The position numbers and the translations under genes were made by a program. This document shows positions 23,740 through 53,624 of a DNA stretch of 64,000 nt, piece by piece. Below the pieces are notes generated by a model that ran no database searches, had not been told where the DNA came from, and saw only the letters and a list, made by a program, of their open reading frames with translations. The stretch comes from Candidatus Obscuribacteraceae bacterium. Lineage in GTDB: Bacteria; Cyanobacteriota; Vampirovibrionia; Obscuribacterales; Obscuribacteraceae. The stretch's first letter is position 1, and the number at the start of each line of letters is the position of its first letter. The stretch spans positions 64,001-128,000 of the forward strand of contig JBGASG010000011.1 in the NCBI GenBank assembly GCA_044229845.1, read 5' to 3'.

Positions 23740-23755
23740 TCATCTGAAAGGTGGA
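23740..23755. promoter_or_regulatory. Palindromic operator candidate TCATCT-GAAA-GGTGGA
   Basis: Variant of the recurring motif between divergent tnaA and the TPR gene. Confidence 0.5.
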
Positions 23756-23860
23756 TTCCTCCAGGTAACCATCCTCGGACATACAGAATGAGGTTGATGT
23801 TGAGTCGCCGGCGGGTTGGAGATACTTGGAATAAGTATGCTCCCGCTTACGGTGATCAAC

Positions 23861-29676: not shown

Positions 29677-31425
29677 CTAAGGAGAAAGTTGCCTGACAGA
29701 CTCACCAAGTTCGAGCAGCTTCGCTTCTCGGTTCTTCAACTTTTGATGGGGTAAAGCTGACTGTGAGCCCAGGCTGTACACATCCAGCTCGCCCCGCAGG
29801 CGCGCCTGCAAAGTATCCAGAATCCACACGCCCGTGCCAGGAATATACGACGTTGATCCCTGCGCAACTCGCTTAGCAAACAACTGGGCGGCCGTCTTCG
29901 GTCGCTTGACCGGCAAGCGGGATGATGACGCAGATGGGCCCGCAGCTGCTCGCGGCGCAGGCGGTGTCGGGGCAGGTTGCTTGAAACCATAGCCGGCATT
30001 GGTCAACTGGATGCCCCACGCCATCTTGGTGCCGCCAATCGATGCATTAAACAGGCAGCGTTCCAAAAACTCCTTATCCGCTTTTTTCTTTTCAGCGGCG
30101 TTCATCTGGGATTGTTGCTTGAATACCAGATCCGCAGTCTCATAAGCAGAAACACGGGCTGCCAATCGTTCGTCGTGGGCGGTAAGCATGCCCTTCAGCA
30201 CGCTTATGTGCTCACTCAATTGAACCGGTCCGATTTTGCCGCATTCGCGATCGAGCCGTGTTTTCGCACGTTTGGCGGCATAGTTACCGGCAATGCGGCC
30301 AATAATGGGACCCGTAACGATATTGGCACCAGATATGGTGAAGCCAATGCCGGCCGGTCCAGCCAGTCTTGGGTTACGATCTGCAACCGCTAACAAACCG
30401 CAAAGCGAACCCATATAGCCACCTGTAGTGGCGGCGGACAACTGGTTGAGATATGAGACGTTGCGTGCTCCCAGGCGGCGCTTAGCCCGTACATGAAACT
30501 GGATATACTCAGCCAAAGCCATGTTGCGAAAATCTTTCAGAACGACTCCTTCCGCCGCCAGCATCTGTCGCTCCGACTCAGGCAAAGAGCTCGTACGCGC
30601 GAGTAATTGCTCACGTTCGGCCAGTGTGCGGTCGATGGCTACACACAACTCCATCGCTCGTTTTTGGGTGGCTTTGGCGTCGAGCCCTCGTTTTCGCAGC
30701 TTACAGTCGTTGACGGCATCGAGTAAGGCTTCGATGAGAACGCCTCCGGTCATGATTGAATGACTAGTCAAAAGCAAAATTGGACCAGCCTTAAGTGCTC
30801 CTCGATTGGCTGTTGCAGGTCGTTGCCACGTGCGCCATCTTTCAGCTGCAATTGTGGTGATACCGGCTGTAGCGACTCCGGAGCCGGCCAGGTTGTACAC
30901 GAACACACGCCATGGCTTAATTCGACTCTTATCAGTCGTGGACATGCGGAAGCGGGTATTTAGTATCAACAGCTCCACTTCATCTTGCAAAGCTTGATTG
31001 GCCAAACTATCAATGCGTGCTGTCACTACTGGCAGGTCGCTTTCATCAGCAGACTTACTCTCCGCCCAGTTGTTCACAGCAATCAGTTTTTTGGGGGCAC
31101 CTTTCGCCATTGGCTCGGCCGTTGCCGTATCGTCTTGCGCCAACCCTGCTTCGTGTGCTGAATCGGTTGCGTATGCTGAATCGGTTGTCGCCGTTGCCTC
31201 GTCCGTCACCGCTCCGTCCGCAACATCGATGCTGGTCATTGTTCCGAAAACTTTCGCAGCGCTCCCTGATTCCGAATCTGAAGAAGCCGCAGTAGCACTT
31301 GCACCTGAACAGTGCAACTTCTGCGAAGGTAGCGCCGAAAAATCTTGCGCTCTAGCATAGTTGGTGCTGCCAGTAACCAGACAGCAGACACTCAGAGCAA
31401 CATGAAAGGCTGGGCGGATATTCAT
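29677..31425 (-). CDS. Hypothetical exported/membrane protein
   Basis: Long ORF, signal-peptide-like N-terminus, Ala/Thr/Ser-rich linker; no family recognised. Confidence 0.7.
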   Translation of the reverse strand: MNIRPAFHVALSVCCLVTGSTNYARAQDFSALPSQKLHCSGASATAASSDSESGSAAKVFGTMTSIDVADGAVTDEATATTDSAYATDSAHEAGLAQDDTATAEPMAKGAPKKLIAVNNWAESKSADESDLPVVTARIDSLANQALQDEVELLILNTRFRMSTTDKSRIKPWRVFVYNLAGSGVATAGITTIAAERWRTWQRPATANRGALKAGPILLLTSHSIMTGGVLIEALLDAVNDCKLRKRGLDAKATQKRAMELCVAIDRTLAEREQLLARTSSLPESERQMLAAEGVVLKDFRNMALAEYIQFHVRAKRRLGARNVSYLNQLSAATTGGYMGSLCGLLAVADRNPRLAGPAGIGFTISGANIVTGPIIGRIAGNYAAKRAKTRLDRECGKIGPVQLSEHISVLKGMLTAHDERLAARVSAYETADLVFKQQSQMNAAEKKKADKEFLERCLFNASIGGTKMAWGIQLTNAGYGFKQPAPTPPAPRAAAGPSASSSRLPVKRPKTAAQLFAKRVAQGSTSYIPGTGVWILDTLQARLRGELDVYSLGSQSALPHQKLKNREAKLLELGESVRQLSP

Positions 31426-31655
31426 GACAGGGTCTCGGTGGAGATGCAGCAATGGTTAGAGTGGCACAAACAAAGGCCTTATGGCACACCCTGTAGAACG
31501 AACTGACATCGTCCCGAGGATGCAAATAAACAGATCGAAAGTGCCGAAGTAATACCTCCGGCACTTTCGATCTGGTACAAAGCTGAATTTTGCGCGATGG
31601 GTAAAGCGATACCTGTTTCTGCTTTTACGATAGTCATCGAATGCAAAACAGCGCA

Positions 31656-31671
31656 TCATCCTTTCGGATGA
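31656..31671. promoter_or_regulatory. Palindromic operator candidate TCATCC-TTTC-GGATGA
   Basis: Perfect match with palindromic A/T flanks, intergenic. Confidence 0.6.
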
Positions 31672-31706
31672 TTCCCTCTAATATAGTCGAGAAGCGCTCA
31701 ATCTAA

Positions 31707-32327
31707 TCACTGCTCGGACGTGCCGCTGTGACTCTGGTCACCTTTGATCTTGCTCTTGCGATAACTCAAGCCCATGCCTTTCAAGAGATGCACGAAGCCG
31801 TAGTCAAGCAATACAATGGCAAGAAATGCCAGACCAACGTGCGGCGCATATTTTTGCAAGTTCTGAAGAAACAATGACCAGGGGTCGCCGTGATGCGGAT
31901 TCAAAGCGTCAGTCCCCTGCGCAAACTCCTTGCCATCAGCAATACCGTCCTCGTCCAAATCACTTTGACCAAGTGCGTCCGCCAGCTTCGCCGGGTCGCT
32001 GCGCATTTCGAGAAACTTCTTCCGTCCAACTACTTTGAGTATCTCGTTGCCGAACTTATTGAGAATCGGGCTGTCAACCTCCGTGCCCGGCTCCATAGCC
32101 TTGCGGGCGGCAAGAAGCTTCTTCATCTGCTCAGGTGTTAGGCCGCCCACTTGTCCGGACTCTGTTCCCACCGGTCCATTACCGTGGGTGTGGCACATTG
32201 CGCAATTAACATTGCGTCCGGACTGCTTCTCAGCATAGCTCTGGAATTCCGGATATGCCACCGCCCCCGGTGCCAGGCAGAACAGGCACGTGATCGTCAA
32301 CAGTGTCAGAGACACATTCGTAGCCAC
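31707..32327 (-). CDS. Membrane-anchored monoheme cytochrome c
   Basis: Signal peptide, CAMCH, DLDEDGIADGKE acidic loop, C-terminal TM. Confidence 0.8.
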   Translation of the reverse strand: MATNVSLTLLTITCLFCLAPGAVAYPEFQSYAEKQSGRNVNCAMCHTHGNGPVGTESGQVGGLTPEQMKKLLAARKAMEPGTEVDSPILNKFGNEILKVVGRKKFLEMRSDPAKLADALGQSDLDEDGIADGKEFAQGTDALNPHHGDPWSLFLQNLQKYAPHVGLAFLAIVLLDYGFVHLLKGMGLSYRKSKIKGDQSHSGTSEQ

Positions 32328-32331
32328 TTGA

Positions 32332-33432
32332 TTATCCCCCTTTCACAAGGTGATAGATCTGCTCGCCCCAAATGGTCATTACAACCAAATAGACTGTCGC
32401 GGCCCAAGTCAATAATTGCAGCGTTCGCCGGCTGGTGCCCTTGAATATCCAGGGAGCCAGAAGCAGAACTGCCACCACCAGACCCGAGCCGACCAGAATT
32501 ACCCAGAACGGCAGCATCTCCAGTGGGTAATAGACAAAATAGAAATACCATTCCGGCTTGATGCCGGGCGGGGTTGAGCCAAGCGCGTTGTACGGTTCCA
32601 GAAGCGGGAAGGGCAAAAGGGAATCGAATGGAATGCAGAGACCCAACACAAAGAGGACGAAGAAGATCATGCTCCACAGCGTAAGATCTTTGAAAAAGAA
32701 AATGGGGAAGAACCGCTCAGATTTCTGCAAAGGTCTATCCACTCCCTGACTCATCCCGTGCAGCTGCACTTGCATCAAATGAATACCCAGCAAAGCAAAC
32801 GTCGCCAGAGGCAATAGAACCACGTGCAATGCGTAAAACCTGCCCAGGGTGGATTGGCCGACGGCAGACTCGCCCTGAAATGTTTCCCTCAGTATGCGAG
32901 GCAACTCGGCCAGTGCCCCAGGCAAATAGGGACCTACTTCTTCGACTGATTGAAGTCCGACCTTAGTGGCATTGACCGCAATCTGATTCCAGGGCAGTAG
33001 ATATCCCGTGAAGGCAAAGCCGAATGTCAGAAATAGAAGCAACACACCCATGATCCATGTGATCTCGCGTGGCTTCTCGAAGGCTTTCATGGCAAATGCA
33101 GTGAGCAGGTGCACCACAGCAAAGAAGACCATGCATGATGCAGACCAGGCATGCATGTTGCGAATTAGTGCACCGGCACTTACGTGATTTGTAATGAACT
33201 CTACAGACAAGTGCGCATCGCTTACCGTGGGCTGGTAATAGAAAAGAAGAAACAGTCCGGTGACGCATTGAATCAGGAAGAAGAACAGGGTCAGCCCCCC
33301 CGTGTAGTAGCCCCAACTCATTTTGTGAACCGGCACTTCCTTCTTCTCGACCATCGAGTGGAAATTCATTTTCTCCACAGGGAATCTGTCGCCGATGAAT
33401 TGCACTAATTGCGTCATCACGGTGGCTTTCAC
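32332..33432 (-). CDS. Cytochrome b subunit of a Rieske/cytochrome b complex
   Basis: RNMHAW...VHL, FTGYLLPW, LHV...IHL, PEWY Qo motif; GTG overlaps the narI-Rieske stop, GGAGG RBS. Confidence 0.92.
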   Translation of the reverse strand: MKATVMTQLVQFIGDRFPVEKMNFHSMVEKKEVPVHKMSWGYYTGGLTLFFFLIQCVTGLFLLFYYQPTVSDAHLSVEFITNHVSAGALIRNMHAWSASCMVFFAVVHLLTAFAMKAFEKPREITWIMGVLLLFLTFGFAFTGYLLPWNQIAVNATKVGLQSVEEVGPYLPGALAELPRILRETFQGESAVGQSTLGRFYALHVVLLPLATFALLGIHLMQVQLHGMSQGVDRPLQKSERFFPIFFFKDLTLWSMIFFVLFVLGLCIPFDSLLPFPLLEPYNALGSTPPGIKPEWYFYFVYYPLEMLPFWVILVGSGLVVAVLLLAPWIFKGTSRRTLQLLTWAATVYLVVMTIWGEQIYHLVKGG

Positions 33433-34748
33433 GAGACTGCCTCCGCATGCGCTTTTGCAATGTACACGTTGGCCTCGGACAGAGCGCTTGCATCCCGTTG
33501 TCCGGTTATTTTGCCGGCGCGATTGCGTTCCATCAGCACCGTCCCTTTTGTATCCATGAGTACCCACCCCAACAAGGGCAGAGGTAGTTTTGCCGGCGCT
33601 CCTTCGTTTGGTTTGCCAGTTTCAATGTCGAAAAACGAAACGTGGCACGGGCAGAGAATCTGTCCCTTGGCATTAACATCATTGCCTACGGTGCATCCCA
33701 AATGCGTGCACTTCGCGGAAAGCAAGATGGGCAAACCGTCTTTGTCCTTGAATGCCATTGCCGGTCGCATACTGTAATCGGTGAAATACTTTCCTTTTGT
33801 GCCGTTCAATTCCGACAACTTAGCAATCAGTATGTAATTGGATTGCTGCCGCTCCAGTTCTAGCTTGCGTTGCTCGGCGGTTGCCTGGAGCCTCTTCAAT
33901 CGCAACTCCATCATCTCGGCTTCTTCCTCTTTGGAGAGGCGAGGGCCAAAGAAGAACCTCCAGGTCTTATCCAGGGCTCCCACTGCCAGCAACGCGCCAC
34001 CGGCAGCGATACCGATGCCGGCGCGCAAAAAGTGTCGTCTGGACTCCTCCTCGACATAGTGCTCGCGAGCAGCCTCGGCTCGACGTTCATTCGTCCAGAC
34101 CACCTTTTGCGGCGGACGGAACAGATACTCTATTGGCACAGCGAACATGTGTATGAGCCGGGAAAATGGAATCGTCAAAATTATCAGCCAGGCTCCGACT
34201 ATGTGAGCCCGAACCAGTATTGGCATGTCTTGTATTACGCTGATGTTGGGGTTGAAGGTGAACAGGCTCCAGATATATGGTGTCATGCTGCCGGGCGCCC
34301 AGGCGGCACCCCATCTGTAATGCAGCGCCATACCCAGCCCGGTAGCCACTTGCGCAAGCAAGAGAAACAGCACCACAAAGTCCATTGTGGTAGAAACGGC
34401 TTGCAGGCGCGAACTCATTATTCGTCGAACGATAAGCACCAGTAGCCCAACGATGCACCCGACTGCCAGCGCGATGCCGGATATCTCGACTGCGTGCAGG
34501 ATGGGTTGCACGGACATAGCCGCCTTCCAGGGACCGGGTGCAACAAGCACCACGATATGGACGAGCAAAATCAGGATGATGCCGATATGCCAGGGCACCG
34601 ACCCCCACACCAGTGCTTTGCTCTCCAGAAACTGCGAGGACAAGGCGGTGTAAGTCAGACCTTGCTTGCGAATGCGGTAGATCGATCCAAATATGCAGGC
34701 CGTCAGCGCTATATAGGGCAGAACGACAAACAACAGGATGTCCAACAT
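33429..34748 (-). CDS. narI: Nitrate reductase gamma subunit fused to a Rieske 2Fe-2S protein
   Basis: NarI part (SSQFLE, WH..VH, AH..PFSRLIH), then SRRHFL + TM + CTHLGC/CPCH in one uninterrupted ORF. Confidence 0.9.
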   Translation of the reverse strand: MLDILLFVVLPYIALTACIFGSIYRIRKQGLTYTALSSQFLESKALVWGSVPWHIGIILILLVHIVVLVAPGPWKAAMSVQPILHAVEISGIALAVGCIVGLLVLIVRRIMSSRLQAVSTTMDFVVLFLLLAQVATGLGMALHYRWGAAWAPGSMTPYIWSLFTFNPNISVIQDMPILVRAHIVGAWLIILTIPFSRLIHMFAVPIEYLFRPPQKVVWTNERRAEAAREHYVEEESRRHFLRAGIGIAAGGALLAVGALDKTWRFFFGPRLSKEEEAEMMELRLKRLQATAEQRKLELERQQSNYILIAKLSELNGTKGKYFTDYSMRPAMAFKDKDGLPILLSAKCTHLGCTVGNDVNAKGQILCPCHVSFFDIETGKPNEGAPAKLPLPLLGWVLMDTKGTVLMERNRAGKITGQRDASALSEANVYIAKAHAEAVS

Positions 34749-34758
34749 AACAAACTCC

Positions 34759-35292
34759 TCAGCTACCGGCACTCATAACTTCCAAAAGACTGGCAAAGAG
34801 CTTGCCATACGGGTTGTTGGTTGCATTTTTCAGATTGTCTGCCATTTCGGCCACTGGTTTTTGCAGACAGAACTCAACCAGCTCGTCGACTTCTTCAGTC
34901 GTGGCATATGTCATGTATCGCAACATCACAGCCAGATGGTCCGGCATTTCATTGCCGCGGTCGAAGCCGGTTTCATCGTATCTTTGGATCAGCCCGGCCA
35001 TTAAGTTGCCGCGCTCGTAGTTTTCATCACCATAAATGTGTGCGCTTATGTATGGGCTGCAAATTGGTGCCATATCGAAGGTGCGGGTGAATACCTCTTC
35101 GAGCTCGCTGAGAGGCATTGCATCGATGCGCTCGCAGAACTCAGCCAGATAGCGCCCCGCTCTGGAATAGTCCGCACTTATGGAAACTTGCCTCTGGCGG
35201 GCCAGTTGCGAGTAACCTTCATTCGGATACTCGAGCAAGGCTGCGTATTCAGAAAGGGCCGGCGCTTTAGGTTTTTTCAACGGAATGATCAT
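34759..35292 (-). CDS. narJ: Nitrate reductase molybdenum cofactor assembly chaperone
   Basis: LLEYP, FTRTFD, ERG, EMPDHL, NPY; position between narH and narI. Confidence 0.88.
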   Translation of the reverse strand: MIIPLKKPKAPALSEYAALLEYPNEGYSQLARQRQVSISADYSRAGRYLAEFCERIDAMPLSELEEVFTRTFDMAPICSPYISAHIYGDENYERGNLMAGLIQRYDETGFDRGNEMPDHLAVMLRYMTYATTEEVDELVEFCLQKPVAEMADNLKNATNNPYGKLFASLLEVMSAGS

Positions 35293-35293
35293 A

Positions 35294-36817
35294 TTATGGA
35301 CCTCTCTCCGGTGGCTGGTTGAATCCAAGCCCGCATGAGCCTTTACATAACTCGGGACTGCACGAAGGTTGCCCGGCCATCGCTTGACCGGTCATCGCTT
35401 CTTCTCGCTGAATTGGCGCCAGTACAAAGCGATCGTAAATCGTTGGTAGAGCAGTAAGCGAATAAATCTCCTCAGCTTCTGAAGGAGTGACATTACCTTC
35501 GCGCATGAACTTGCTCATGGATACGAGATCAAGATCTCCTATCTCCTGCGTCCGTTTGTAATAACGCACCGCCATCAGTTTCTTCATTACGTATTCGATG
35601 TGCTCTACATTGCCGGCGCTAAAGAGTTTCGCCAGGTATTTGATCGGCAATCGCGACTTTTCCAGGCTGCTGAAAAACTGATCGACCGGATTCTCGTAAT
35701 GCCCGTTGTCGAATTTACCCATCACAGGCAAAAGTGGTGGCACATAGAAAAGCATCGGCATGGTCCGATACTCTACGTGTAAAGGCAGTGCAAGTTTCCA
35801 TTCCTTGACGTACTTATATATAGGCGACTTTTGAGCGGCATCGATAAATTCGTCGCTGATCCCGTTTTTGCGAGCCTCCTGCATGATCTTGGGATCGAAG
35901 GGGTCGCAGATGACACTGCGCTGCGCCTCGACGAGGGCATGATCCGGTACGCTCATGGCTTCAGCCACACGCTCCGCGTCATACAGCAGAACCCCCAGAT
36001 AACGGATGCGGCCCACACATGACTGGAAGCAGTTGGGAATCTGTCCTGTCTCCAGCTTTGGATAGCAAAGAATGCACTTCTCCGATTTGCCCGTTTTCCA
36101 GTTGTAATAAATTTTCTTATACGGGCAAGCGGAGATGCACGCTCTCCAGCCCTTGCACATGTCCTGATTGATCAGGACAATTCCGTCTTCGCCGCGCTTA
36201 TAAAGAGCCCCAGACGGGCAGGATGCGACACAGCTGGGATTTGCGCAATGATTGCAAATGCGGGGCAAATACATAAATGAGATACGCTCTACCTCGAAGA
36301 GTTGCTCGCGCTCTTCGTCACTGAGACCTTCGAGATTGATATCGTTTTCGGCGTAGACAGGGGAGCCAGAAAGATCATCATCCCAGTTCGGACCAGCTTC
36401 GATGTCCATTGGCTCACCGGTGATTTGCGACACGGCAATTGCTGTGGGCTGATCATCACCTTCTGGTGCATCGAACAAGTCCTGGTATTTGTACGTCCAG
36501 GGCTCATAATAATCCTCGAGCCCCGGTTGGTTCGGGTTGTAGAACAGTTTGAGAAACGCATCCAGCTTGCCTTGTGAGCGCAGCTCAAGGCTTCGCTTGC
36601 CGTTCTTGCCGTTGACTTTCCAGCCGCCTTTGTAGTGCTCCTGATCTTCCCACAAAGTGGGATAGCCGGTGCCGGGTTTGGTTTCGACATTGTTCCACCA
36701 CATATACTCAGCGCCCGGTCTATCCGTCCAGACGTTTTTGCAAGCCACGCTGCACGTATGGCAGCCGATACATTTGTCGAGGTGAAACACCATTGAGACT
36801 TGTGCGCGAATATCCAT
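35294..36817 (-). CDS. narH: Nitrate reductase beta subunit
   Basis: DKCIGCHTCSVACK, PRICNHC, CKGWRAC, KCILCYP. Confidence 0.96.
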   Translation of the reverse strand: MDIRAQVSMVFHLDKCIGCHTCSVACKNVWTDRPGAEYMWWNNVETKPGTGYPTLWEDQEHYKGGWKVNGKNGKRSLELRSQGKLDAFLKLFYNPNQPGLEDYYEPWTYKYQDLFDAPEGDDQPTAIAVSQITGEPMDIEAGPNWDDDLSGSPVYAENDINLEGLSDEEREQLFEVERISFMYLPRICNHCANPSCVASCPSGALYKRGEDGIVLINQDMCKGWRACISACPYKKIYYNWKTGKSEKCILCYPKLETGQIPNCFQSCVGRIRYLGVLLYDAERVAEAMSVPDHALVEAQRSVICDPFDPKIMQEARKNGISDEFIDAAQKSPIYKYVKEWKLALPLHVEYRTMPMLFYVPPLLPVMGKFDNGHYENPVDQFFSSLEKSRLPIKYLAKLFSAGNVEHIEYVMKKLMAVRYYKRTQEIGDLDLVSMSKFMREGNVTPSEAEEIYSLTALPTIYDRFVLAPIQREEAMTGQAMAGQPSCSPELCKGSCGLGFNQPPERGP

Positions 36818-36825
36818 ATCGACTC

Positions 36826-39800
36826 CTAGAAGTTCGGCTTGTCGAGTTTTTTCACAACGACGAAAGTGTCACGATTTACGCCAGTAGGTCCCCAGTAGTT
36901 GAACCCATAGCTGAATTGCGCATAGCCGCCGATCATGAATAGCGGCTTCAGTCGTGCCCGCGTAAGACTGTTGTGTCCGCCGGCTCGCCTGTTTTTTCGT
37001 TCCGGAGATTTCGGTACTGTCAACGTGCGCTCGGGCGAGTGATAAATGAAAGCGGTGCCGCGCGGGATACGAGCACTGACGATAGCGCGGGTGCAGACCA
37101 CGCCATGATCGTTGAAAATTTCTACCCAGTCGTTATCTTCGACACCAACGAGATCGGCATCCTTGTCGTTCAACCAGACCGGATAAATTCCTCTGCTCAG
37201 AGTTTTCATCCGTAAGGTGTCGCCGAAGGTTGAGTGAATATGCCACTTGCCGTGTGGTGTCAGGTAATTGAGCACCAACGAGCCACCTTTCACCTCAGTT
37301 TTCTGCAGGTCACGCGTGACACTCAAGTCGGCACGTGGTTTGTATGTCGGCAGATGCTCGCCGTAAGCGATGTAGACTTCATGATCCAGATACAGATGCT
37401 GCCGGCCGGTAAGCGTGCGCCAGGGAATCAATTCTTCGACGTTCTGGCAATAAGCGGAGTAGGTTCTGTTTTCAGTCGTTATGCCAGTCCAGTAGGGTGA
37501 TGTCAGCACACGACGCGGCTGCGCCCTCAAATCAGCGAATGTATAGCGGGTAGCGCGCGTGTCTCTGGCCAGATGGCTATGATCGATACCTGTCTTATGA
37601 CTTTCAGATTCATATGCGCGAAAAGCAAGTTCGCCGTTTGTCTCCGCTGCGAAGTTCAAAATCACCTCGCAAACATTGAGACCTTCCTTTAGTGACGGAT
37701 AGCTTTTGCCTGACCATGTTTGCGACGGTTGAGTCTCGATGTATTTGTCATACTCATCTTCGATATCATAGTGAGTTCCGTGTACCGCCAATCCATTGTT
37801 GCGGGCGACCGGCCCGAATGAGATGAACTTGTTATAGAGATTGACGTAATCGCGCTCCACTACTTTCATATTGGGCATGGTCTTGCCCGGAATTGCTTCG
37901 CATTCACCCTTGAGCCAGTCTTTCACAGTCGGTTGCGCGATCTCGCCGGGAGTGTCATGAAGCAAAGGCGACACCACCAGGTCTTTGACCGGTTCGTTCA
38001 AATAGCGTTTTGCCAACTCAGAGGTAGATTTCGCAATTCCTTTGAATATATCCCAATCAGTCTTGCTTTCCCAACATGGTGGCACCGCCGGTTGCAGAGG
38101 ATGAATAAAGGAATGCATGTCCGTGGTGTTCAGGTCATGCTTTTCATAGTGGGTAGCTGCAGGCAAGACCAGGTCTGAATAGAGAGCAGATGAATCCATG
38201 CGGAAGTTAAGGTCTACCACCAGATCCATCTTGCCCAACTCGATCTTGTCGTGCCAGGTAATCTCTTTGACCTCATCACCGGCCACTTCCTCGGCTATGG
38301 TGTTATTGTGCGTTCCCAAGTAATGTTTGAGAAAATACTCGTGTCCCTTTGCTGATGAGAGCAGCGCATTTCCCCGCCATATGTACCAGACGCGGGGCCA
38401 CGACTCCGGCACGTCAGGATCTTCCATGGAGAATTTCAATGAGCGATCTTTTAAAGACTTAACTGCATACTCAATGATTTGCGAGTCGGTTTTTGCTCCA
38501 CTGGCTACTGCTTCTTCGACCACTTTGAGATTGCTTCGGTTGAATTGTGGAAAGCACGGCAGCCAGCCATTTCGTACAGCCAACACTTGTTTGTCAGCTG
38601 TATGTCCTGAACTCATTGGATGCTTGTCGTCCGCTACCGCGCACATCTCATTAAATGAATTGTCATAGCGCCACTGATCCGAATGTATGTAATGGAAAGA
38701 CGGCGTATTTTGCAGACGCGGCGGCCCGTACCAATCTGTGCCGAAAGCAATGGGTGCCCACGAGGCCTGTGGCACCAGCTTTTCTTGTCCAACGTAGTGG
38801 TTTAAGCCGCCACCACTTACCCCGACACTGCCGGTGAGGATGAGCGCATTGATTGCCGCTCTGTAAATGAGGTTGTTGTGATACCAGTGGTTGGCACCGG
38901 CACCAATAATTATCGAGCACTTGCCTTTACTCGCTTCTGCGGTGCGCCCCCACTCGCGAGCGAAGTTGATCACATTTACTGCTTTGATGCCAGTAAACTT
39001 CTCCTGCCACGCGGGGGTATAAGGAAGCTCTTCGTCTTCGTAAGTCTCCGGATATGCGCCTCCCATGCCGCGGTCAACACCATATTGAGCAAGCAGAAGC
39101 TCCATGACGGTCGTCACAAGCACTTCCCCGGTGGCGGTTGTGACGCGGCGAACTGCCACACCACGATTGAAAAGTTTGTCGGCAGTGCCTTCCGAGAAGT
39201 CGTTTAACTTCACACTCACCACGCCATCATGACGCCCGACGAGGGTGAGGAGTGGATCTACCTTGGCGTTGGTCAAAGCATTCTCCAACTTCAGATTCCA
39301 TTCGCCTTTTTTGGATTGCCAGCGATGCCCAATCGTTCCTCTGAGCATTGCCGGCTGATCGGTGAGCGCGTCCCAAACGAACATTTTCCACTCGGCGTTC
39401 TCTTCCTTCGCTGTGCTTTCGACATCACTGGCCCTCAGCAAACGCCCGGCGCTGTATGTGCCATCGGCATTTTTGTCGAGACAGACAAGAAACGGAGCAT
39501 CGCTGTATTGCTTGGCATAATTGACGAAGTAAGGCACCTGCCGATCGAGGTAAAACTCTTTAAGCAGAACATGCGTAACTGCCATCCAGAAAGCGCCGTC
39601 CTGTCCCTGATTGATTGGAACCCACTCGTCAGCAATTTTCGAAGCCATCGAGAAGTCTGGCGAGAAGACCACAACCTTGGCGCCACGGTGCCGTCCTTCA
39701 ACTAAGAAGTGCGCGTCGGGTGTTCTTGTCATGAGCACGTTGGAGCCTACAACGGCAACAAATTTGGAGTGAAACCAATCCGCACTTTCGCCGACATCAG

Positions 39801-40458
39801 TTTGCTCACCCCAGATCTCAGGCGACGCCGGCGGCAAGTCGCAGTACCAGTCATAAAAAGACATACTGACGCCACCTAGCAGTTGCAGGAAGCGTGAGCC
39901 TGCTGCGTAGCTCACCATCGACATGGCTGGAATCGGAGAAAAGCCGATAATGCGATCTGAACCGTGTCTCTTGATTGTCGAGATGTTGGCTGCTGCCATC
40001 ATCTCATTAGCTTCGTCCCAGGCGACACGGCGGAAGCCGCCTTTGCCTCGCGCGCTCTGGTATCGTTTGCGCTTGTCAGGGTTCTGGACTATCGACTCCC
40101 ATGCCGCAACCGGATCATTGGGAAACTGAGCTTTGGCTTCGCGCCAGAGATCGATCAAGGCGCCCCGAGCGTAAGGGTACTTCACTCTCAGCGGGCTGTA
40201 GAGGTACCAGCTGCAGGAGATACCGCGCTGGCAGCCTCTGGGCTCGTGGGGAGGAATGTCTTTACTGATACTGGGATAATCCAGCGCTTGCAGTTCCCAT
40301 GTAACAATGCCACTTTTCACATAGACGTTCCAACTGCACGAGCCGGTGCAATTGACACCATGAGTGGAGCGTACGATGTTGTCGTATTGCCAGCGATTTC
40401 TATAGAAGTCTTCCCATTGCCGCTGTTTCGGTGCAAAAATGTCTTTGATCCAAGCCAT
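36826..40458 (-). CDS. narG: Nitrate reductase alpha subunit (no Tat signal)
   Basis: [48 protein letters not shown]. Confidence 0.96.
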
Positions 40459-40464
40459 GGTGCC

Positions 40465-41334
40465 TTATCTCCTGGTTAACTTGTCGCGGGCCGGTTTCTT
40501 CCGTGTGCGGTAGCCCACTGCCACGGCCGCAATCAGAATTGCAGCCCCGATAAACCCCATCATTTCTACAGCTCCAGAAACTGGTTTATTGGACCCAACT
40601 CCTTTAAGAGTCGACATGTATGCTGCCAGGTCAACGGCTTCGTCGTGAGTAACCGGGCTGTCTTTGTAAGCATTTTTCATGACCCGGTAGGGTGTCTTTT
40701 CCGCTGCCACCACCAGCGCTACCATATTGAATTTCGTGGCGACGGCACCGAGGTCTGGACCCAACCCTCCCTTTGTCTCTCCCGTCACGCTGTGACACGA
40801 GACGCATGCCATGCCCTGGTTTTTCAATGAGCGCTTTCCGGAGAACAATTCTTCGCCTGCAACCACAGATCCCGGCTGTTCGGTTTTTACCGGCGGCTCA
40901 GTTTCGACGTGCTTGGTAGTACCGGCGGCAGTGCTTGAGGCATCCGAACTGGTGGCTGTGCCGGTTGCGGTAGTGTCAGACGATGGTTTGGTCTCAGCAG
41001 ACGTCGTGCTCGTCGTTGGGTTCAGTGCGGCTGCGTCCGATCCGCCGCCTTTGAGATATTTGACCAGTGTGGTAATCTCGGCCGCTGTCATAGGACCGGC
41101 CTGACTTTGCATCCGGGTCACATTACCTTCGATCTGAGATTCCGCCTGCAGTTTCGCGCCGCCCAGATCTGGACCGACGAGTGGACCTTTCCCTATCGTG
41201 TGGCAGCTGGCGCACTTTTCGGTAAACAACTGCGAACCATCCTGGGCAGCGGCGTTGATCGGTACCGCCAGCGATATCGCTACAAGCACCCGAGATGCGA
41301 TCTTTGCTGTCGTCCTCAAGCGCATTCTTGTCAT
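40465..41334 (-). CDS. Membrane-anchored diheme cytochrome c (NarC-like)
   Basis: Signal peptide, CASCH and CVSCH, Thr/Ser linker, C-terminal TM; directly upstream of narG. Confidence 0.85.
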   Translation of the reverse strand: MTRMRLRTTAKIASRVLVAISLAVPINAAAQDGSQLFTEKCASCHTIGKGPLVGPDLGGAKLQAESQIEGNVTRMQSQAGPMTAAEITTLVKYLKGGGSDAAALNPTTSTTSAETKPSSDTTATGTATSSDASSTAAGTTKHVETEPPVKTEQPGSVVAGEELFSGKRSLKNQGMACVSCHSVTGETKGGLGPDLGAVATKFNMVALVVAAEKTPYRVMKNAYKDSPVTHDEAVDLAAYMSTLKGVGSNKPVSGAVEMMGFIGAAILIAAVAVGYRTRKKPARDKLTRR

Positions 41335-41384
41335 CCGGCTTCCTTCCGCGACCACCTTCAATAAAATCTGCGCTGCTCGAAGCT

Positions 41385-42866
41385 TTAGTCGCTGCATTGA
41401 TTATGAAGTGAACGAATGGTCCCGATCCTTCGGCGGATGCGCAGTTTGTTCAAAACTGCATCGGCAGCTCGCCTGGCAGATGCAAGACAATCAGGAATCC
41501 CGATGCCGCTGTATGCGTTACCAGCCAGGTACAAATCATCACAGCCGCCTAACTCTGCCTGCAAATCTTGCATGCGTTCCAGGTGCCCGACTTCGTACTG
41601 CGGCAGCGCATTGTCGTGCCTGGTCACCCAGACCTGGAGCGGCGGTCTTTCGACACCAACATAGTCTTCAAGGTCTTTCAGCAAGGCAGCAACGACGTCC
41701 TGGTTACTGGCGCCATCCAAAAGGCTCTGTCCTTCTCTGCTGAGAGACACGCGCAACAAGACTTTATCCTCCTCCGTCCTGCCACCGAATTTGATGCTTG
41801 TGAATGTACACGCACTCGTAAAGCGCCCCTCTTTTGGAGGAACAACGAACCCAAAGCCGTCCAGAGCATGTCGGATGTCTTTTCGGTAAAAAAGAAGATT
41901 GACGATAACAGTCGGTGCGTACGCGATCTGCCTGAGTTTGTGCCCGAGGGAAGCATTTATAGGGCAGAGGAGTTGTCCGGCTATGTTGGCTGGAGTTGCC
42001 ACCACCACACTGTGAGCTCCTATTCGCTTACCGCTGCACAGGCAGATTTCATACCCGTACTCTGGCAGCGTGCTGTGTACGATGTGATCTACGGGTGTAT
42101 TGAGACAAACTGAACCGGCAGGCAGGTGGCGTAAGAGCCCATCGATCAATACTTGCATTCCACGGTCGAAACTTGCAAATAGCCCATAGCGTGATCCTGC
42201 AACAGCTGAATTCCGACCATCCTTCTTTTGTAGTTTCTGCTTCCACAATCCGCGAATAATGCTTCCGCACTCAGCTTCGTACTGCACCATTTGCGGTACC
42301 GTACATTTGGAACTCAAAAGACGAGCGTCCCCACCATAAATTCCTGCGATCATCGGCTCGGCTAGCTGCGTGAAAGCCTCCTGCCCGAGACGTCGCTGCA
42401 CAAAATCGGCTAAACTCTCGTCCACTGCATCGCCTTTGCGAGGAATAACGAGATCCATAGCCATGCGAATTTTACAGGGCACACTGACCACACCGGTAGT
42501 GAGCCAGGGCCGGAACTTCGTAGGAGCAAACAAGACGAATCCATCCGGCATGGGATGCAGTTTGCTCCGGCGAGCTATAAAGGTGCGTCGATGCTTTTCG
42601 TTGGTGGATATTACACTGTGCGTCAGTCCCAACTCCCGCACCAGATCGACAACCTGGGGCTTCGCCGTTAGAAATGCTTCGGGTCCTTTATCTATCACGG
42701 CACCGGCAGCGACCTCGGTCGCTATCACGCCTCCAGCGCGACCACTGCCTTCCAGGACGATAACCTCCACCTGTGCGCAATCGCTGCCGCGATGAATGAA
42801 ATATGCTGCCGCAAGGCCAGATATCCCCGCTCCGATCACGACAATTCGAGTGCGACTCTCAACCAT
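41385..42866 (-). CDS. hemY: Protoporphyrinogen/coproporphyrinogen oxidase (HemY)
   Basis: IGAGISGL, GPEAF, GIYGGD, DGFGFVVP, LPQYEVGH, GIGIPDC. Confidence 0.9.
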   Translation of the reverse strand: MVESRTRIVVIGAGISGLAAAYFIHRGSDCAQVEVIVLEGSGRAGGVIATEVAAGAVIDKGPEAFLTAKPQVVDLVRELGLTHSVISTNEKHRRTFIARRSKLHPMPDGFVLFAPTKFRPWLTTGVVSVPCKIRMAMDLVIPRKGDAVDESLADFVQRRLGQEAFTQLAEPMIAGIYGGDARLLSSKCTVPQMVQYEAECGSIIRGLWKQKLQKKDGRNSAVAGSRYGLFASFDRGMQVLIDGLLRHLPAGSVCLNTPVDHIVHSTLPEYGYEICLCSGKRIGAHSVVVATPANIAGQLLCPINASLGHKLRQIAYAPTVIVNLLFYRKDIRHALDGFGFVVPPKEGRFTSACTFTSIKFGGRTEEDKVLLRVSLSREGQSLLDGASNQDVVAALLKDLEDYVGVERPPLQVWVTRHDNALPQYEVGHLERMQDLQAELGGCDDLYLAGNAYSGIGIPDCLASARRAADAVLNKLRIRRRIGTIRSLHNQCSD

Positions 42867-43075: not shown

Positions 43076-44617
43076 ATGAATAAATCCAGCGACTCACAGC
43101 CGCCATCCGTCCTGGCAAACAACAACACCAGAGCTGTGCAAGTCCTGGCGGCCAATACGGCTTCCTTTGCTGTTTGCTTCGCCTGCTGGATGCTGTATGG
43201 CGTTTTGATCACTTTTCTAGTCGACAACAACGTCTTCAAATGGAACCCATCGCAGATGGGATGGTTGATCGGCATTCCCGTGTTAACGGGCTCCATCATG
43301 CGCTTGCCGGTCGGAGTACTCACCGACAGATATGGCGGTAGAGCGGTCTATGCCGTCTTGATGCTAATTTCGGCCGCGTCCATGTTCATGGTCGGGTTCT
43401 GCAATTCCTTTGTTGAATTTCTTGTTGCCGGACTTTGCTTCGGACTGAGCGGAGCGGCCTTCGCCGTAGGAGTTGCGTACACGTCGATCTGGTTCCCTAA
43501 AGAAAGACAGGGCTTTGCTTTGGGCATATTTGGAGCAGGCAACGCCGGCGCCGCTATCACCAGCTTCGGTGCACCACAGCTTTTGTCTTGGCTAACGCAC
43601 AACATGCAGAACATAGAAGGGTGGCGACACTTACCTCGATTGTACGCCGCTGCATTAGTCGTAATGACAGTCATATTCTGGTTGCTGACTTCGACGAAGA
43701 AAGTGCAAGGTAAAGAAGGCATGACCATCATGCAACAGCTTGCACCATTGAAAAACGTACGGGTTTGGAGATTCGGACTCTACTACTTCCTTGTCTTCGG
43801 CGGATTCGTTGCTCTCTCACAATGGTTGATTCCGTATTACTTGAACGTCTACGGCATGAGTTTGGCTCTGGCCGGTTTCATGGCTGCGCTTTTTAGTTTG
43901 CCCTCGGGAGTGATTCGCGCTCTCGGCGGCTGGATGTCCGACAAGTGGGGAGCGCGCAACGTAATGTATGTGGTACTGGTATCGTGTTTGGTTGCCTGCG
44001 CACTTTTGTGTGTACCGCGCATGGACATTCAGTCACCAGGTCCAGGAGTGATGGCCATGCAAAAAGGTATAGTGACTGCAATCACCGCCGATTGCGTCCA
44101 AGTTGACGACAAACGATATGCAATCAAACCCAGGCATCCAGAAAATGTTGTCACCATCGCCGATAAGAACGACAGTATGCTGATTTGGCCAACCCTGGTG
44201 TCATGGCAAGAACCGATGGTGAAGGTCGGTGATACAGTTCAGCGCAAGCAGGTTTTGGCTCGTGGAGTGACGCACATCTTTTTCCAGGCAAATGTCTGGA
44301 TATTCACCGTCCTTGTATTTATCATCGGTGTCATGACCGGCATTGGCAAAGCCGCGGTTTACAGGCACATTCCCGACTACTTCCCGCACGATGTCGGGGT
44401 CGTGGGCGGTATCGTCGGAGTCATCGGTGGGCTGGGAGGCTTCGTCGGACCGATACTCTTTGGTTATTTCTTGGACGTCAGTGGAATCTGGACCACCTGT
44501 TGGGTGTTTTTCGCCATCCTCAGCGCGGTCTGCCTGACCTGGATGCATTGGACTATTTCACACATGATGAATGAGCACGCACCGGAACTGGCTCGCCAGA
44601 TGGCAACGCGAATCTGA
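43076..44617 (+). CDS. narK: Nitrate/nitrite transporter (NarK family) with inserted soluble domain
   Basis: GAAFAVGVAY, FGAGNAG, GIGKAAVY, GGLGGF; soluble insert at 44021-44280. Confidence 0.9.
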   Translation: MNKSSDSQPPSVLANNNTRAVQVLAANTASFAVCFACWMLYGVLITFLVDNNVFKWNPSQMGWLIGIPVLTGSIMRLPVGVLTDRYGGRAVYAVLMLISAASMFMVGFCNSFVEFLVAGLCFGLSGAAFAVGVAYTSIWFPKERQGFALGIFGAGNAGAAITSFGAPQLLSWLTHNMQNIEGWRHLPRLYAAALVVMTVIFWLLTSTKKVQGKEGMTIMQQLAPLKNVRVWRFGLYYFLVFGGFVALSQWLIPYYLNVYGMSLALAGFMAALFSLPSGVIRALGGWMSDKWGARNVMYVVLVSCLVACALLCVPRMDIQSPGPGVMAMQKGIVTAITADCVQVDDKRYAIKPRHPENVVTIADKNDSMLIWPTLVSWQEPMVKVGDTVQRKQVLARGVTHIFFQANVWIFTVLVFIIGVMTGIGKAAVYRHIPDYFPHDVGVVGGIVGVIGGLGGFVGPILFGYFLDVSGIWTTCWVFFAILSAVCLTWMHWTISHMMNEHAPELARQMATRI

Positions 44618-45264: not shown

Positions 45265-45318
45265 TCTCGTCTGCTAGCATGCGTGTCACCCTGGAGTGTG
45301 CAACCGATGGAGGTTTCG

Positions 45319-47565
45319 ATGTCCTGGAGATGGAAGCTAGCAGTGCTGTTTGTGTTAATAGCGGGTTTTTCGACCTTAATTTTTATGGGACATGAAACCA
45401 GTAATCAAGCACCACCAATTCCAGATCAGGTCGTCACTACCGAAGGAAAGGTCATTTTTACCGGCAAAGACATCCTTGAGGGACAGGGAGTCTTTCAAAA
45501 GTATGGGCTCATGGACGTGGGCTCCTTTTTTGGTCACGGTGCGTATAACGGTCCTGACTTCTCCGCTGATTACCTCCACCGTGAAGCCGTGATCTCGTTA
45601 GATCGAGTCGCTCAGAGCCGGTTCGGCAAACCATTTGCACAACTGGAGGCTGGCGCCCAAGGTGATCTGACCAACAGCCTCAAACACGAGTTCAAAGAAA
45701 ACAGATACGATCCGAAATCGAAAACGCTTACCTGGACGGATAACCAGGTGGAAGCATACCGGCAACTCCAACAGTACTATGATACCGACTTTGGTGCTGG
45801 TCGCAAGTTACCATTGCCCGTCGACTACATCAAAGACTCCCAAGAGCGCCTACAACTCAGCCGTTTTTTCTCCTGGGGGTCCTGGGTGTGTTCAACAAAT
45901 CGCCCGGGCAAGGACTACACCTACACAAATAACTGGCCTCCGGAACAACTTGTCGGCAACGGACCGAACTGGCATATCTTCTTCTGGAGCGCTATGAGTC
46001 TTGTGATGCTCATTGGTGGTATCGGTCTGACTCAGTTCTTGCTGAGCGCATTTCCGGGATTGGGCTGGATGCCTGATGGCGGCGGCATGACTGACAATGT
46101 CAAAGAGTACAAACCATATCGTTCTCAGACCTCGCTATATCCCTATTTTGCTGTTGTCGTGCTGCTGTTTTTGTTTCAGACTGCATTTGGTGTCGTAACA
46201 GCGCACTACATTGTGGAGCAAGGCTTTTACGGCTTCGATATCCGCAACATCTTCCCATACAGCATTACGAGAAGCTGGCATTTGCAGCTTTCCATTTTTT
46301 GGATTGCTACGGCCTGGCTTGCGGCAGGTATGTTCATGGCGCCAATGCTTTCAAAGCACGAGCCTAAAGCGCAACACTGGCTAGTCAAAATTCTGTTTGT
46401 CGCCATTTTGATTGTTGCAGTCGGGAGCATCGGCGGCGAATGGCTTGGTGTCAAAAATATGCTTGGCAATCTTTGGTTCTGGTTCGGGCATCAAGGTTGG
46501 GAATATCTAGAGCTAGGACGCTTCTGGCAAGCCCTTCTGACCATAGGAATGGTGCTCTGGGCCGTCATTGTTTTTCGCAGCATTAACCCTTTGCTGAAAG
46601 GAAAGGATCTCGGAAGTCTCCCCTACATGCTGCTCTACGGCGTCATGGCAATTCCGTTGTTCTTTAGCTTCGGCATGATGTACCATCCCGGCACGAATTT
46701 TGCAGTTGCCGATTTTTGGCGCTGGTGGGTCGTTCACTTGTGGGTGGAAGGCATCTTTGAACTGTATACAACAATCATTGTTGCTTATTTCTTCTGCAGT
46801 CTCGGCATGGTTTCGGAAAAATCCGCTCTATCTGTCATTTACGTTGACATCATTTTGTATCTGGGCAGCGGCATTGTTGGAATCGGTCACCACTACTACT
46901 GGACGGCACAGCCCGCAATCAACATGGCATTGGGTTCAATGATTTCAGCCTGGGAGGTGGTACCGCTGACGTTACTAACGATGGAAGCGTGGAAATTTGT
47001 AGAACTAGCCAAAGTCAAAGGTTCGATAAAAAACTTCTCTCACTATTGGGCGATGATGTTCCTGATAGCAGTAGGATTTTGGAACTTTCTCGGGGCAGGT
47101 GTGTTCGGCTTCTTAGTCAACACGCCGATCGTCAGCTACTACGAGCACGCGACTTATCTGACCTCAAACCACGGACACGCGGCTCTCATGGGTGTGTACG
47201 GAATGCTCGCGGTAGCAGCCGTTTTATTTTGCACACGCTACCTGATGATTGAAGATGCTTGGAGCAACCGATTGGCAGCGCTTTCTTTCTGGGGCTTGAA
47301 CATCGGACTCTTGCTCATGTTAGTGCTCAACATATTCCCGGCTGGCGTAATCCAAATGGTGGAAAGCTATCAAAACGGCTTCTGGTCTGCTCGCAGCCCA
47401 GAGTTCGTCCAGTCGCACCTGTTTCAGGTGTTTACCTGGCTACGTGTCGTTGGTGATTTAACTTTTGTCGTAGTGGGCGTATTCCCGCTAGTTTTCCTAG
47501 TTCTCAGAGGCATATTTCATTTGCGACCAGCGAGGCAGCCCGAAAGTCTTCCGCAAACTACCTAG
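45319..47565 (+). CDS. norZ: Quinol-dependent nitric oxide reductase (qNor)
   Basis: GHGAY.GPDFSADYLH, YTNNWP, WWVVHLWVEGIFE, GHH, NHGHAALMGVYG; GGAGG RBS. Confidence 0.93.
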   Translation: MSWRWKLAVLFVLIAGFSTLIFMGHETSNQAPPIPDQVVTTEGKVIFTGKDILEGQGVFQKYGLMDVGSFFGHGAYNGPDFSADYLHREAVISLDRVAQSRFGKPFAQLEAGAQGDLTNSLKHEFKENRYDPKSKTLTWTDNQVEAYRQLQQYYDTDFGAGRKLPLPVDYIKDSQERLQLSRFFSWGSWVCSTNRPGKDYTYTNNWPPEQLVGNGPNWHIFFWSAMSLVMLIGGIGLTQFLLSAFPGLGWMPDGGGMTDNVKEYKPYRSQTSLYPYFAVVVLLFLFQTAFGVVTAHYIVEQGFYGFDIRNIFPYSITRSWHLQLSIFWIATAWLAAGMFMAPMLSKHEPKAQHWLVKILFVAILIVAVGSIGGEWLGVKNMLGNLWFWFGHQGWEYLELGRFWQALLTIGMVLWAVIVFRSINPLLKGKDLGSLPYMLLYGVMAIPLFFSFGMMYHPGTNFAVADFWRWWVVHLWVEGIFELYTTIIVAYFFCSLGMVSEKSALSVIYVDIILYLGSGIVGIGHHYYWTAQPAINMALGSMISAWEVVPLTLLTMEAWKFVELAKVKGSIKNFSHYWAMMFLIAVGFWNFLGAGVFGFLVNTPIVSYYEHATYLTSNHGHAALMGVYGMLAVAAVLFCTRYLMIEDAWSNRLAALSFWGLNIGLLLMLVLNIFPAGVIQMVESYQNGFWSARSPEFVQSHLFQVFTWLRVVGDLTFVVVGVFPLVFLVLRGIFHLRPARQPESLPQTT

Positions 47566-53030: not shown

Positions 53031-53033
53031 GAT

Positions 53034-53615: not shown

Positions 53616-53624
53616 GGCAGCTCC

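Follow-up and report, generated by a model that had tools for sequence, protein, structure and literature searches.

NarGHI, the textbook example of a redox loop, always delivers 2 H+ for every 2 e-. What does it mean, then, when the membrane subunit of such a nitrate reductase is found in one piece with a subunit of a cytochrome bc complex? This question is raised by a stretch of 64,000 nucleotides (nt) from Candidatus Obscuribacteraceae bacterium (GenBank assembly GCA_044229845.1, contig JBGASG010000011.1, positions 64,001 to 128,000), called the window in this text. Here the narI gene of a nitrate reductase (Nar) operon reads through into a Rieske iron-sulfur protein, and genes for a cytochrome b and a monohaem cytochrome c follow; we call the whole the nar-bc operon and its last part the bc module. 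We find the fusion to be real and widespread, and it appears to be a variant of two well-known respiratory enzymes that has not been described before. That Nar and the bc module are physically coupled is well supported, and the two very probably form one complex that is used for nitrate respiration, while the electron path and the energy gain are what we infer from it. For the reading that we prefer, a serial path in which a Q cycle in the bc module feeds Nar as its main electron route, we estimate a probability of about 0.5.

A preliminary description of the locus, made from the DNA letters, had reported that narI keeps four haem-b histidines and continues through an SRRHFL motif and a transmembrane (TM) helix to the Rieske boxes. 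Both observations hold. The open reading frame (ORF) of the fusion (33429-34772, minus strand) has no internal stop in its translation. Its likely start is the ATG at 34748, which stands behind GAGGAG and 12 nt past the narJ stop, giving a protein of 439 amino acids (aa), the same length as in relatives. Performing a hidden Markov model scan, we find both expected domains in this one frame. Nitrate_red_gam (PF02665) spans 2-216 of 217 profile positions (E 3e-60), and Rieske (PF00355) matches residues 315-394 of the 447-aa frame (E 1e-7). A motif script placed the haem histidines in PWH54, LVH64, RAH182 and LIH200 (439-aa numbering). They lie in TM2 and TM5 and do not vary in two alignments, one of 13 and one of 27 sequences. 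The same alignments show as invariant the twin arginine R237 R238 (nt 34035-34040) inside SRRHFL (aa 236-241, nt 34026-34043) and the two Rieske boxes, CTHLGC (aa 347-352, nt 33693-33710) and CPCH (aa 366-369, nt 33642-33653). The Rieske signature S..F after CPCH is also invariant. The NarI domain aligns to residues 4-220 of E. coli NarI (1Q16_C), including its four haem histidines, and the best solved-structure matches of the Rieske domain are bc1/b6f Rieske proteins.

Could the fusion be an assembly or sequencing artefact, or a gene decaying in this genome? We found nothing in favour of this explanation; the lone assembly difference, at 41426/41427, lies outside the fusion. A protein search gave 526 proteins at E ≤0.001 among 8000 candidates scored, and the 120 listed all measure 433-443 aa and contain the two Pfam domains. 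The source databases name these homologues merely 'nitrate reductase gamma subunit'. In a species-genome collection there were at least 519 matching stretches, and the locus counts given here rest on the best 80. The NarI and Rieske halves lie in a single frame, stop-free between the halves, in 80/80 of these loci, which is far beyond chance, and the catalytic residues are invariant. Within a set of 41 genomes (the window's own and 40 relatives), the fusion was matched over its full length in 12, with one stop inside the match listed for 4 of the 12.

Sequence data from elsewhere agree with the window. Contigs of 21.5 and 60.5 kb from two DNA runs of other studies are identical to it over 31500-41426, and an RNA-library contig of 409 nt on 33744-34151 spans the linker and the twin-arginine (RR) junction with zero differences; the DNA runs may themselves be the window's source, and RNA libraries can contain DNA. 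Both kinds of contig thus cover, without a difference, 34020-34120, where the preliminary description had asked for read mapping. The RNA-library contigs left 11/30 bins uncovered per run. On the homologue, contig and locus evidence we rejected a pseudogene or artefact, the chance of which we regard as negligible.

The whole module travels with the fusion. Judged by tblastn of the window proteins, the gene order narC-G-H-J-I::Rieske-cytb-cytc is the same in all 80 loci as far as the contig allows, so the synteny that the preliminary description had proposed to look for is found wherever there is room. Counting only loci with room on the contig, we found NarC in 54/54, NarG in 62/62, NarH in 65/65, NarJ in 72/72, cytochrome b in 76/76 and the monohaem cytochrome c in 72/72. 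Among 51 complete loci, the NarC ORF has two CXXCH motifs in 50 (the exception has three and is probably over-extended), and the last gene has one in 51/51. By their record titles, all 80 loci are from metagenome-assembled genomes. The same titles, in which bin labels can be wrong, give at least 13 phylum-level labels: Obscuribacterales/Melainabacteria (18), Verrucomicrobiota (18), Hydrogenedentota (10), Acidobacteriota (6), Proteobacteria including Myxococcales (6), Planctomycetota (4), Bacteroidota (3), Omnitrophota (3), Sumerlaeota (2), Clostridia (2), and Gemmatimonadota, Eisenbacteria, Nitrospiraceae and FCPU426 (1 each), with 4 unlabelled. NarG is 66-77% identical across the labelled lineages. 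Literature searches, with subscription journals and supplements outside their coverage, found no paper that describes a NarI-Rieske fusion, in line with the earlier remark that the fusion is uncharacterised.

Which kind of Nar is tied to the Rieske protein? All four Nar components lie above their NCBI equivalog cut-offs: NarG with 1548 bits against 1084 (TIGR01580), NarH with 625 against 524 (TIGR01660), NarJ with 64.7 against 59.35 (TIGR00684) and the NarI part of the fusion with 117.7 against 105.55 (TIGR00351). The N-terminus of NarG reads MAWIKDIF..., then HGVNCTGSC, and our script finds no twin-arginine motif in it, which bears out the earlier statement that NarG has no signal for twin-arginine translocation (Tat). 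NarG matches its profile from position 27 onward and aligns to E. coli NarG (1Q16_A) over residues 12-1206 with 1265 bits. By its sequence, NarG is of the cytoplasmic type. Compared with E. coli NarGHI (1Q16), the core enzyme, the equivalog matches and the four NarI haem histidines are the same; E. coli differs in having no NarC and no fused Rieske domain, and its Lys86 is not conserved here, Glu88 standing instead.

A Rieske/cytochrome b partner of Nar is itself not a new idea. The haloarchaeal pNarGH is linked to NarB (Rieske) and NarC (cytochrome b), for which a Q-cycle feed has been proposed. The Methanoperedens model likewise has a Rieske/cytochrome b complex with a genetic link to Nar and a proposed Q-cycle feed, as set out in PMC5244752. 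In these archaea, however, NarG is Tat-signalled and outward-facing, so Nar adds no charge separation, and there is neither a NarI nor a fusion. We rejected the haloarchaeal pNar type for the window, where NarG lacks the RR motif and a complete NarI is present.

The genes behind the fusion make up a bc complex. In the window all intergenic spacers of the operon are ≤12 nt by their junction sequences (the count of reading frames is given as eight, the named genes are seven; Table 1). The preliminary description had called the PEWY-containing cytochrome b translationally coupled to the fusion. The PEWY motif is there, at residue 288, but the overlap is not, the start lying 12 nt past the fusion stop. 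The script also finds the two His pairs, 89/103 and 198/213. In this cytochrome b, a b6-like N-terminal part is joined to a C-terminal part that resembles subunit IV; its best solved match is cytochrome b6 (E 9e-45), its second His pair has the b6 spacing, and Tyr replaces Cys at the haem-ci position. The cytochrome c with CAMCH that was reported after it is found as described (Table 1) and is presumed to be the c1/f equivalent of the bc module.

In four relatives (G010, G011, G017 and G025) we find the Rieske-cytochrome b-cytochrome c trio free-standing, with no adjoining nar genes. Its members are 50-62% (Rieske), 57-72% (cytochrome b) and 44-51% (monohaem c) identical to the window proteins, and its Rieske protein begins at the RR motif. 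With the fusion as query, G010, G011 and G025 gave no NarI match. Since the trio stands alone in relatives, it is a complete complex III of the lineage, and the nar-linked copy a dedicated second one. By the same token, the c subunit of the trio would normally have a further c cytochrome as its electron acceptor, and within the operon only narC encodes one. The window's own genome, which is 88% complete, has four cytochrome b genes: the nar-linked one, a second in the window beside another Rieske gene, and a pair on one contig (C22) that adjoins a haem-copper oxidase.

That second bc-type cluster of the window (50587-54842, minus strand) is an observation of its own. It encodes an unknown polytopic protein of 405 aa, a Rieske protein (193 aa, with SRSRFI), a PEWY cytochrome b (365 aa) and a 449-aa protein whose N-terminal half weakly resembles cytochrome bd subunit I (PF01654, E 2e-9) and whose C-terminal domain is a cytochrome c with CMSCH.

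The operon begins with narC, the dihaem cytochrome c that had been noted before narG. After its signal peptide, NarC carries CASCH at 41 and, past a low-complexity linker, CVSCH at 177; its C-terminal TM helix ends in a basic tail. Across 27 sequences, neither the two CXXCH motifs nor Met75/Met219 vary, giving two class-I cytochrome c domains with one conserved Met each. The NarC profile matches the actinobacterial dihaem QcrC across both domains (E 4e-5), and also membrane-anchored cytochrome cy.

Does NarC sit on NarI? Performing complex prediction for the one pair of NarI 1-232 and NarC 148-289 in three runs with three controls, we obtained an ipSAE (interaction prediction score from aligned errors) of 0.66 in 3/3 runs, and 0.00 for the best control. 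The ipSAE mark is reached by 116/157 solved complexes and 2/215 mismatched pairs, counts that apply only roughly with own alignments. The partner pLDDT (predicted local distance difference test) was ≥75, and ≥76% of the contacts were common to the runs. In the model, the NarC helix packs on NarI TM3 (85-100), its basic tail contacts the cytoplasmic end of TM2, and the region of CXXCH-177/Met219 contacts the periplasmic loops 75-81, 141-157 and 170-176 of NarI, above the haem-bD His. Searching PDB sequences, we found no NarC-related chain bound to a NarI. The prediction supports binding of NarC to NarI. In Thermus, NarC is the fourth Nar subunit and binds NarI in two-hybrid assays, as described in PMC7694296. 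Cytochrome c::NarI fusions occur naturally in the same NarI clade (P0132 and P0163, 474 and 478 aa), and we count them in favour of Nar-bc coupling. The clade holds other fusions as well, namely NarI with a multihaem cytochrome c3/c7 (P0245, 401 aa) and NarI with a major facilitator superfamily (MFS) transporter (P0149, 644 aa).

Thus the structural part of what the preliminary description had proposed, a Nar joined to a bc complex, is borne out by a conserved operon unit, a covalent NarI-Rieske link and NarC predicted on NarI. From sequences and the model together, a Thermus-type cytoplasm-facing NarCGHI would very probably be tied covalently, via NarI::Rieske, to a dedicated Rieske/cytochrome b/monohaem c complex. 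The Thermus thermophilus operon (narCGHJIKT) is the closest in layout: a dihaem membrane-bound periplasmic cytochrome c comes first, then narGHJI and the transporters, and NarG is cytoplasmic. It differs in having no Rieske, cytochrome b or monohaem c gene and no fusion. The NarC-NarI binding that PMC7694296 reports for Thermus from two-hybrid assays is a prediction here, and in that account denitrifying cells repress complex III, and the suggested role of NarC is to hand electrons on to the outside.

A tie of this kind must place the Rieske domain on the outer side of the membrane. E. coli NarI (1Q16) has its N-terminus outside and its C-terminus in the cytoplasm. With the NarI C-terminus inside, the RR motif would face the cytoplasm and the Rieske domain the periplasm, where a bc complex needs it. 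In an AlphaFold2 (AF2) model of the fusion (mean pLDDT 80.9), the five NarI helices are followed by a disordered linker (211-228, pLDDT <50), a long helix (225-267) with the sixth membrane span inside it and then, in the periplasm, a further helix (273-302) and the Rieske fold (305-431). The sixth helix has the lowest mean hydropathy of the six (1.34, the others 1.5-2.4), and K/R residues follow it, DKTWRFFFGPRLSK. An RR motif, a weakly hydrophobic last helix and trailing positive charges are features of dual Sec/Tat substrates according to Tooke et al. (PMC5449189). The fusion has the sequence features of a class IV Tat substrate, with an internal conserved RR, a weak last helix, positive charges and a cofactor domain outside, and TatC is encoded in its own genome. 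We suggest that Sec/YidC would insert the five NarI helices and that Tat, by way of the internal RR motif, would then export TM6 together with the Rieske domain in its folded state. The NarI-Rieske family is not named in the accessible parts of Tooke et al. (PMC5449189) or of a 2026 Tat review (PMC13673990).

The two-step design proposed here is known from polytopic QcrA, where the Rieske domain comes behind extra Sec-inserted helices with an internal Tat motif, a weak last helix and trailing positive charges (described in PMC5449189). QcrA belongs to the actinobacterial bcc-aa3 supercomplex (QcrABC; 6HWH, 7RH5), in which complex III and a terminal enzyme are wired together by a dihaem cytochrome c, as they would be by NarC here. 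There the terminal enzyme is an oxidase and the extra QcrA helices bind no cofactor, in contrast to the complete dihaem NarI of the fusion. A cultured planctomycete, Thermogutta terrifontis, has complex III genes beside narGHI, and its authors suggested a role in nitrate respiration (PMC5673643). Compared by that description only, it has no reported NarC and no reported fusion.

How could electrons move through such a complex? In the serial path that we prefer, quinol would be oxidised at the Qo site of cytochrome b. One electron would pass from the Rieske cluster to the monohaem c, the two NarC haems, NarI haem bD, haem bP, NarH and NarG, which would reduce nitrate in the cytoplasm; this path is the least certain step. 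The other electron would be recycled via the b haems to Qi. The Q cycle would then move 2 charges per 2 e- and the transfer through NarI another 2, which makes about 4 per nitrate, as opposed to 2 for ordinary NarGHI. A potential of about +260 mV is predicted by the Rieske signature S..F, with menaquinone near -80 mV (PMC4122944), and nitrate is at +433 mV (PMC5244752). From these values, about 340 mV would be available for the Q-cycle leg from menaquinol and about 170 mV for the leg to nitrate. With one charge moved per electron on each leg, a yield of about 4 charges per nitrate would be feasible, the last leg being near equilibrium. The preliminary description had proposed that a Q cycle supplies Nar by way of c haems, for a gain in H+ per nitrate, or that the system runs in reverse, and we find this plausible.

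The gene content speaks for the serial path: the bc copy is dedicated, fused and in the same operon, and narC is the only further c cytochrome there. We looked for other acceptors of electrons from c cytochromes. The own genome gave no NirS, NrfA or NIR_SIR, and its best match to the NirK model reached 77 bits against a cut-off of 296. Among flanking ORFs of 22 loci (117 of 130 scanned, 13 being left out for size), 0/117 gave a match to NirS, Cu-oxidase (copper nitrite reductase), NosZ or COX1, and a single ORF matched NrfA. The fuller proposal is that, across a widespread range of uncultured bacteria, NarI serves as a transmembrane electron wire, fed on the periplasmic side by a dedicated Q-cycle complex via three c haems, giving about 4 rather than 2 charges per nitrate at a reversible near-equilibrium, and that the fusion founds a new class of cofactor-bearing Sec-plus-Tat membrane proteins. 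We hold this only tentatively, at slightly under even odds.

Several points weigh against a serial path. E. coli NarI haems have potentials of about +20 and +120 mV, well below the roughly +260 mV of the Rieske cluster, so entry into NarI against the membrane potential would be uphill unless the haems are tuned. In Thermus, electrons are thought to flow in the opposite direction, from NarI to NarC and other reductases, according to PMC7694296. The search with a menA model, which would bear on the quinone type, had no match. Furthermore, direct quinol oxidation at NarI would short-circuit the longer path, and nothing suggests that NarI has lost its own quinol site. This last point comes from a comparison with five true unfused NarIs (L101-L105), which are 224-225 aa long and end in their own stop; in two of them (L101 and L102) a NarK homologue comes next in place of the Rieske part. 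The fused NarI domain is 41-43% identical to these over its full length, and all conserved positions of the five are kept in the fused protein, Glu88, WGSxPWH and the periplasmic loop motifs among them. Thus the fused NarI probably keeps whatever quinol site its unfused relatives use. The position of the quinol-site Lys86 of E. coli is hydrophobic in the whole NarI clade, fused or unfused, with Glu88 invariant instead. A 237-aa protein, P0123, first seemed to be the nearest NarI without a fusion, but in its relatives L095 and L099 the frame runs on to 442 aa and includes a Rieske part; P0123 is probably a fragment, and we rejected it.

These findings raise the question of whether Nar and bc module are tethered and yet work in parallel. 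NarI would then oxidise quinol itself and be the main donor to NarGH, at 2 charges per 2 e-, while the fused bc module would be co-assembled and co-regulated with it, and NarC with the monohaem c would form a branch to other periplasmic acceptors or oxidases. In a variant, electrons can enter by either route, and the cell switches between a fast path of low yield and a slow one of high yield. All conserved positions being common to fused and unfused NarIs fits such an arrangement, and the Lys86 position, hydrophobic throughout the clade, does not discriminate the two. In addition, Thermus NarC bridges electrons from Nar to nitrite and NO reductases in replacement of complex III (PMC7694296), and in relatives the trio functions as a complex III by itself. 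However, it is difficult to see why a second, dedicated bc complex should share the operon and be fused to NarI if other acceptors are what it serves. A c-dependent N-oxide reductase was not found in the 88%-complete own genome, nor among the 117 flanking ORFs except for the one NrfA. The genome has another cytochrome b pair beside its oxidase, and the nitric oxide reductase (NOR) near the module is of the long quinol-type form with an N-terminal extension. We consider this arrangement rather unlikely, if a serious competitor of the serial path.

The near-equilibrium of the last leg raises a further question, as the leg from the c haems to nitrate would be reversible. Could the enzyme be a nitrite oxidoreductase (NXR), oxidising nitrite in the cytoplasm and sending electrons out via NarI and NarC to c cytochromes and an oxidase? 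The proton-motive force would then drive the bc module backwards, and the quinone reduced in this way would serve to make NADH, as in Nitrobacter. In Nitrobacter, a narC-type cluster of great similarity, which includes a NarC-like cytochrome c and NarGHJI homologues, does act as cytoplasmic NXR (PMC7694296). Melainabacterial enzymes of such kind have been labelled cytoplasmic NXR, followed by petB and narK (Matheus Carnevali et al., PMC6349859); the passages of that paper on the melainabacterial 'NXR' do not mention a fusion. The Nitrobacter-type NXR differs, however, in its oxidative direction and in belonging to an autotroph. We know of no report of a bc module in its cluster. A RuBisCO large subunit was not found in the 88%-complete own genome, and the labelled carriers are mostly heterotrophic lineages. 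NarG, NarH, NarJ and NarI each exceed the Nar equivalog cut-offs, yet sequence alone cannot separate Nar from Nitrobacter-type NXR. The recurrent neighbours of the module in 22 loci are NarK, molybdenum cofactor (Moco) synthesis genes, CRP/FNR-type regulators, ScdA-type di-iron repair proteins and porin-like proteins. Together with the quinol-type NOR and the hybrid-cluster-protein (Hcp) fragment of the window, this neighbourhood looks like one of nitrate respiration. We find the oxidative direction quite improbable, and a serial, Q-cycle-fed nitrate reductase remains the reading that we prefer.

Table 1. Coordinates of the nar-bc operon, the parts of the fusion protein and the bordering genes in the window (bisMGD, bis-molybdopterin guanine dinucleotide)
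Feature	Position	Strand	Remarks
nar-bc operon	31707-41334	-	order narC-narG-narH-narJ-narI::Rieske-cytochrome b-monohaem cytochrome c
narC, membrane-anchored periplasmic dihaem cytochrome c	40465-41334	-	289 aa from ATG 41334; Pfam Cytochrome_CBB3/Cytochrom_C
narG, catalytic Mo-bisMGD subunit	36826-40458	-	1210 aa; no Tat signal; TIGR01580
narH, iron-sulfur subunit	35294-36817	-	507 aa; TIGR01660; Pfam Fer4_11 and Nitr_red_bet_C
narJ, chaperone	34759-35292	-	likely start ATG 2 nt past narH stop; TIGR00684
narI::Rieske fusion	33429-34748	-	439 aa; Nitrate_red_gam and Rieske
NarI domain of the fusion	34074-34748	-	aa 1-225; five TM helices; haem-b His 54, 64, 182, 200
Cytoplasmic linker and sixth TM helix	33963-34073	-	linker aa 226-240; TM6 aa ~241-262
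Periplasmic part of the fusion	33429-33962	-	long helix aa 273-302; Rieske [2Fe-2S] domain aa 305-431
Cytochrome b	32332-33417	-	361 aa; PF00033 and PF00032
Monohaem cytochrome c	31707-32327	-	206 aa; signal peptide, CAMCH at 42, C-terminal TM helix
Two terminator-like hairpins at the operon end	31531-31672	-	31672-31655 and 31574-31531 (latter 19 pairs)
HemY-type protoporphyrinogen-oxidase-like flavoprotein	41385-42866	-	immediately upstream of narC; TIGR00562, 270.7 bits against cut-off 97.85
NarK-family nitrate/nitrite MFS transporter	43076-44617	+	divergent; TIGR00886 E 6e-52, under the curated cut-off

At its end, the operon runs into terminator-like sites, 3 per 301 bases after the last gene against 0.2 expected, two of them on the minus strand. 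On the other side, the link of the HemY-type gene to the module is loose, its homologue being near the module in just 3/80 loci by tblastn (L017, L018 and L039). The NarK-family gene is accessory and outside the nar-bc operon in the window; in many loci, tblastn finds NarK homologues downstream of the module. At the assembly difference at 41426/41427, two DNA contigs of other studies have 55 extra letters, with flanks identical to the window. This site is inside the 3' end of the HemY-like ORF, upstream of the likely narC start and outside the fusion. The window may carry a 55-base deletion or be a strain variant, and the extra letters would alter the HemY-like C-terminus and the apparent overlap with a long narC ORF.

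Beyond the hairpins, a gene at 29677-31452 (minus strand) encodes a secreted-looking protein of 591 aa with no Pfam family. By tblastn, its homologues lie near the module or NarK in at least nine Obscuribacterales-type loci (L009, L010, L011, L014, L019, L020, L029, L030 and others), and an Atlas search returned solely unnamed Melainabacteria clusters. In other phyla, unannotated ORFs of 520-545 aa or alginate-export/OprB-type porins come after NarK. The 591-aa protein may be an outer-membrane channel for nitrate or nitrite.

Further along the window, a long NorB of 760 aa (45283-47565, plus strand) has an N-terminal cytochrome-c-like extension and is a quinol-type NOR by its architecture. A 320-aa Hcp (Prismane) fragment is encoded at 54890-55852 (plus strand). 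These two here, and the ScdA-type genes in other loci, suggest that the module goes along with NO detoxification. In the 20 kb beside the nar region there are two reverse transcriptase/maturase genes of group II introns and one gene for an IS66 transposase (47667-49361, minus; 58456-59853, minus; 56985-58358, plus), and the truncated Hcp ORF may have been cut by a group II intron or the IS66 element. At 20796-24265 (minus strand), there are two adjacent beta-eliminating-lyase genes of the tryptophanase/tyrosine phenol-lyase type (510 and 672 aa), the second with a long N-terminal extension.

As annotation pipelines name the fusion 'nitrate reductase subunit gamma', the module is invisible in metabolic reconstructions. 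If our reading is true, a large new family with a haem-binding Sec-inserted part would join the few proteins that need both Sec and Tat. The module would also be a natural, genetically fused model of a respiratory supercomplex, in which the benefit of hard-wiring is directly testable. A Nar that is fed by its own bc complex would change the energy yield assumed for nitrate respiration, and the lineages affected are common in activated sludge, drinking water, groundwater, soils and lakes.

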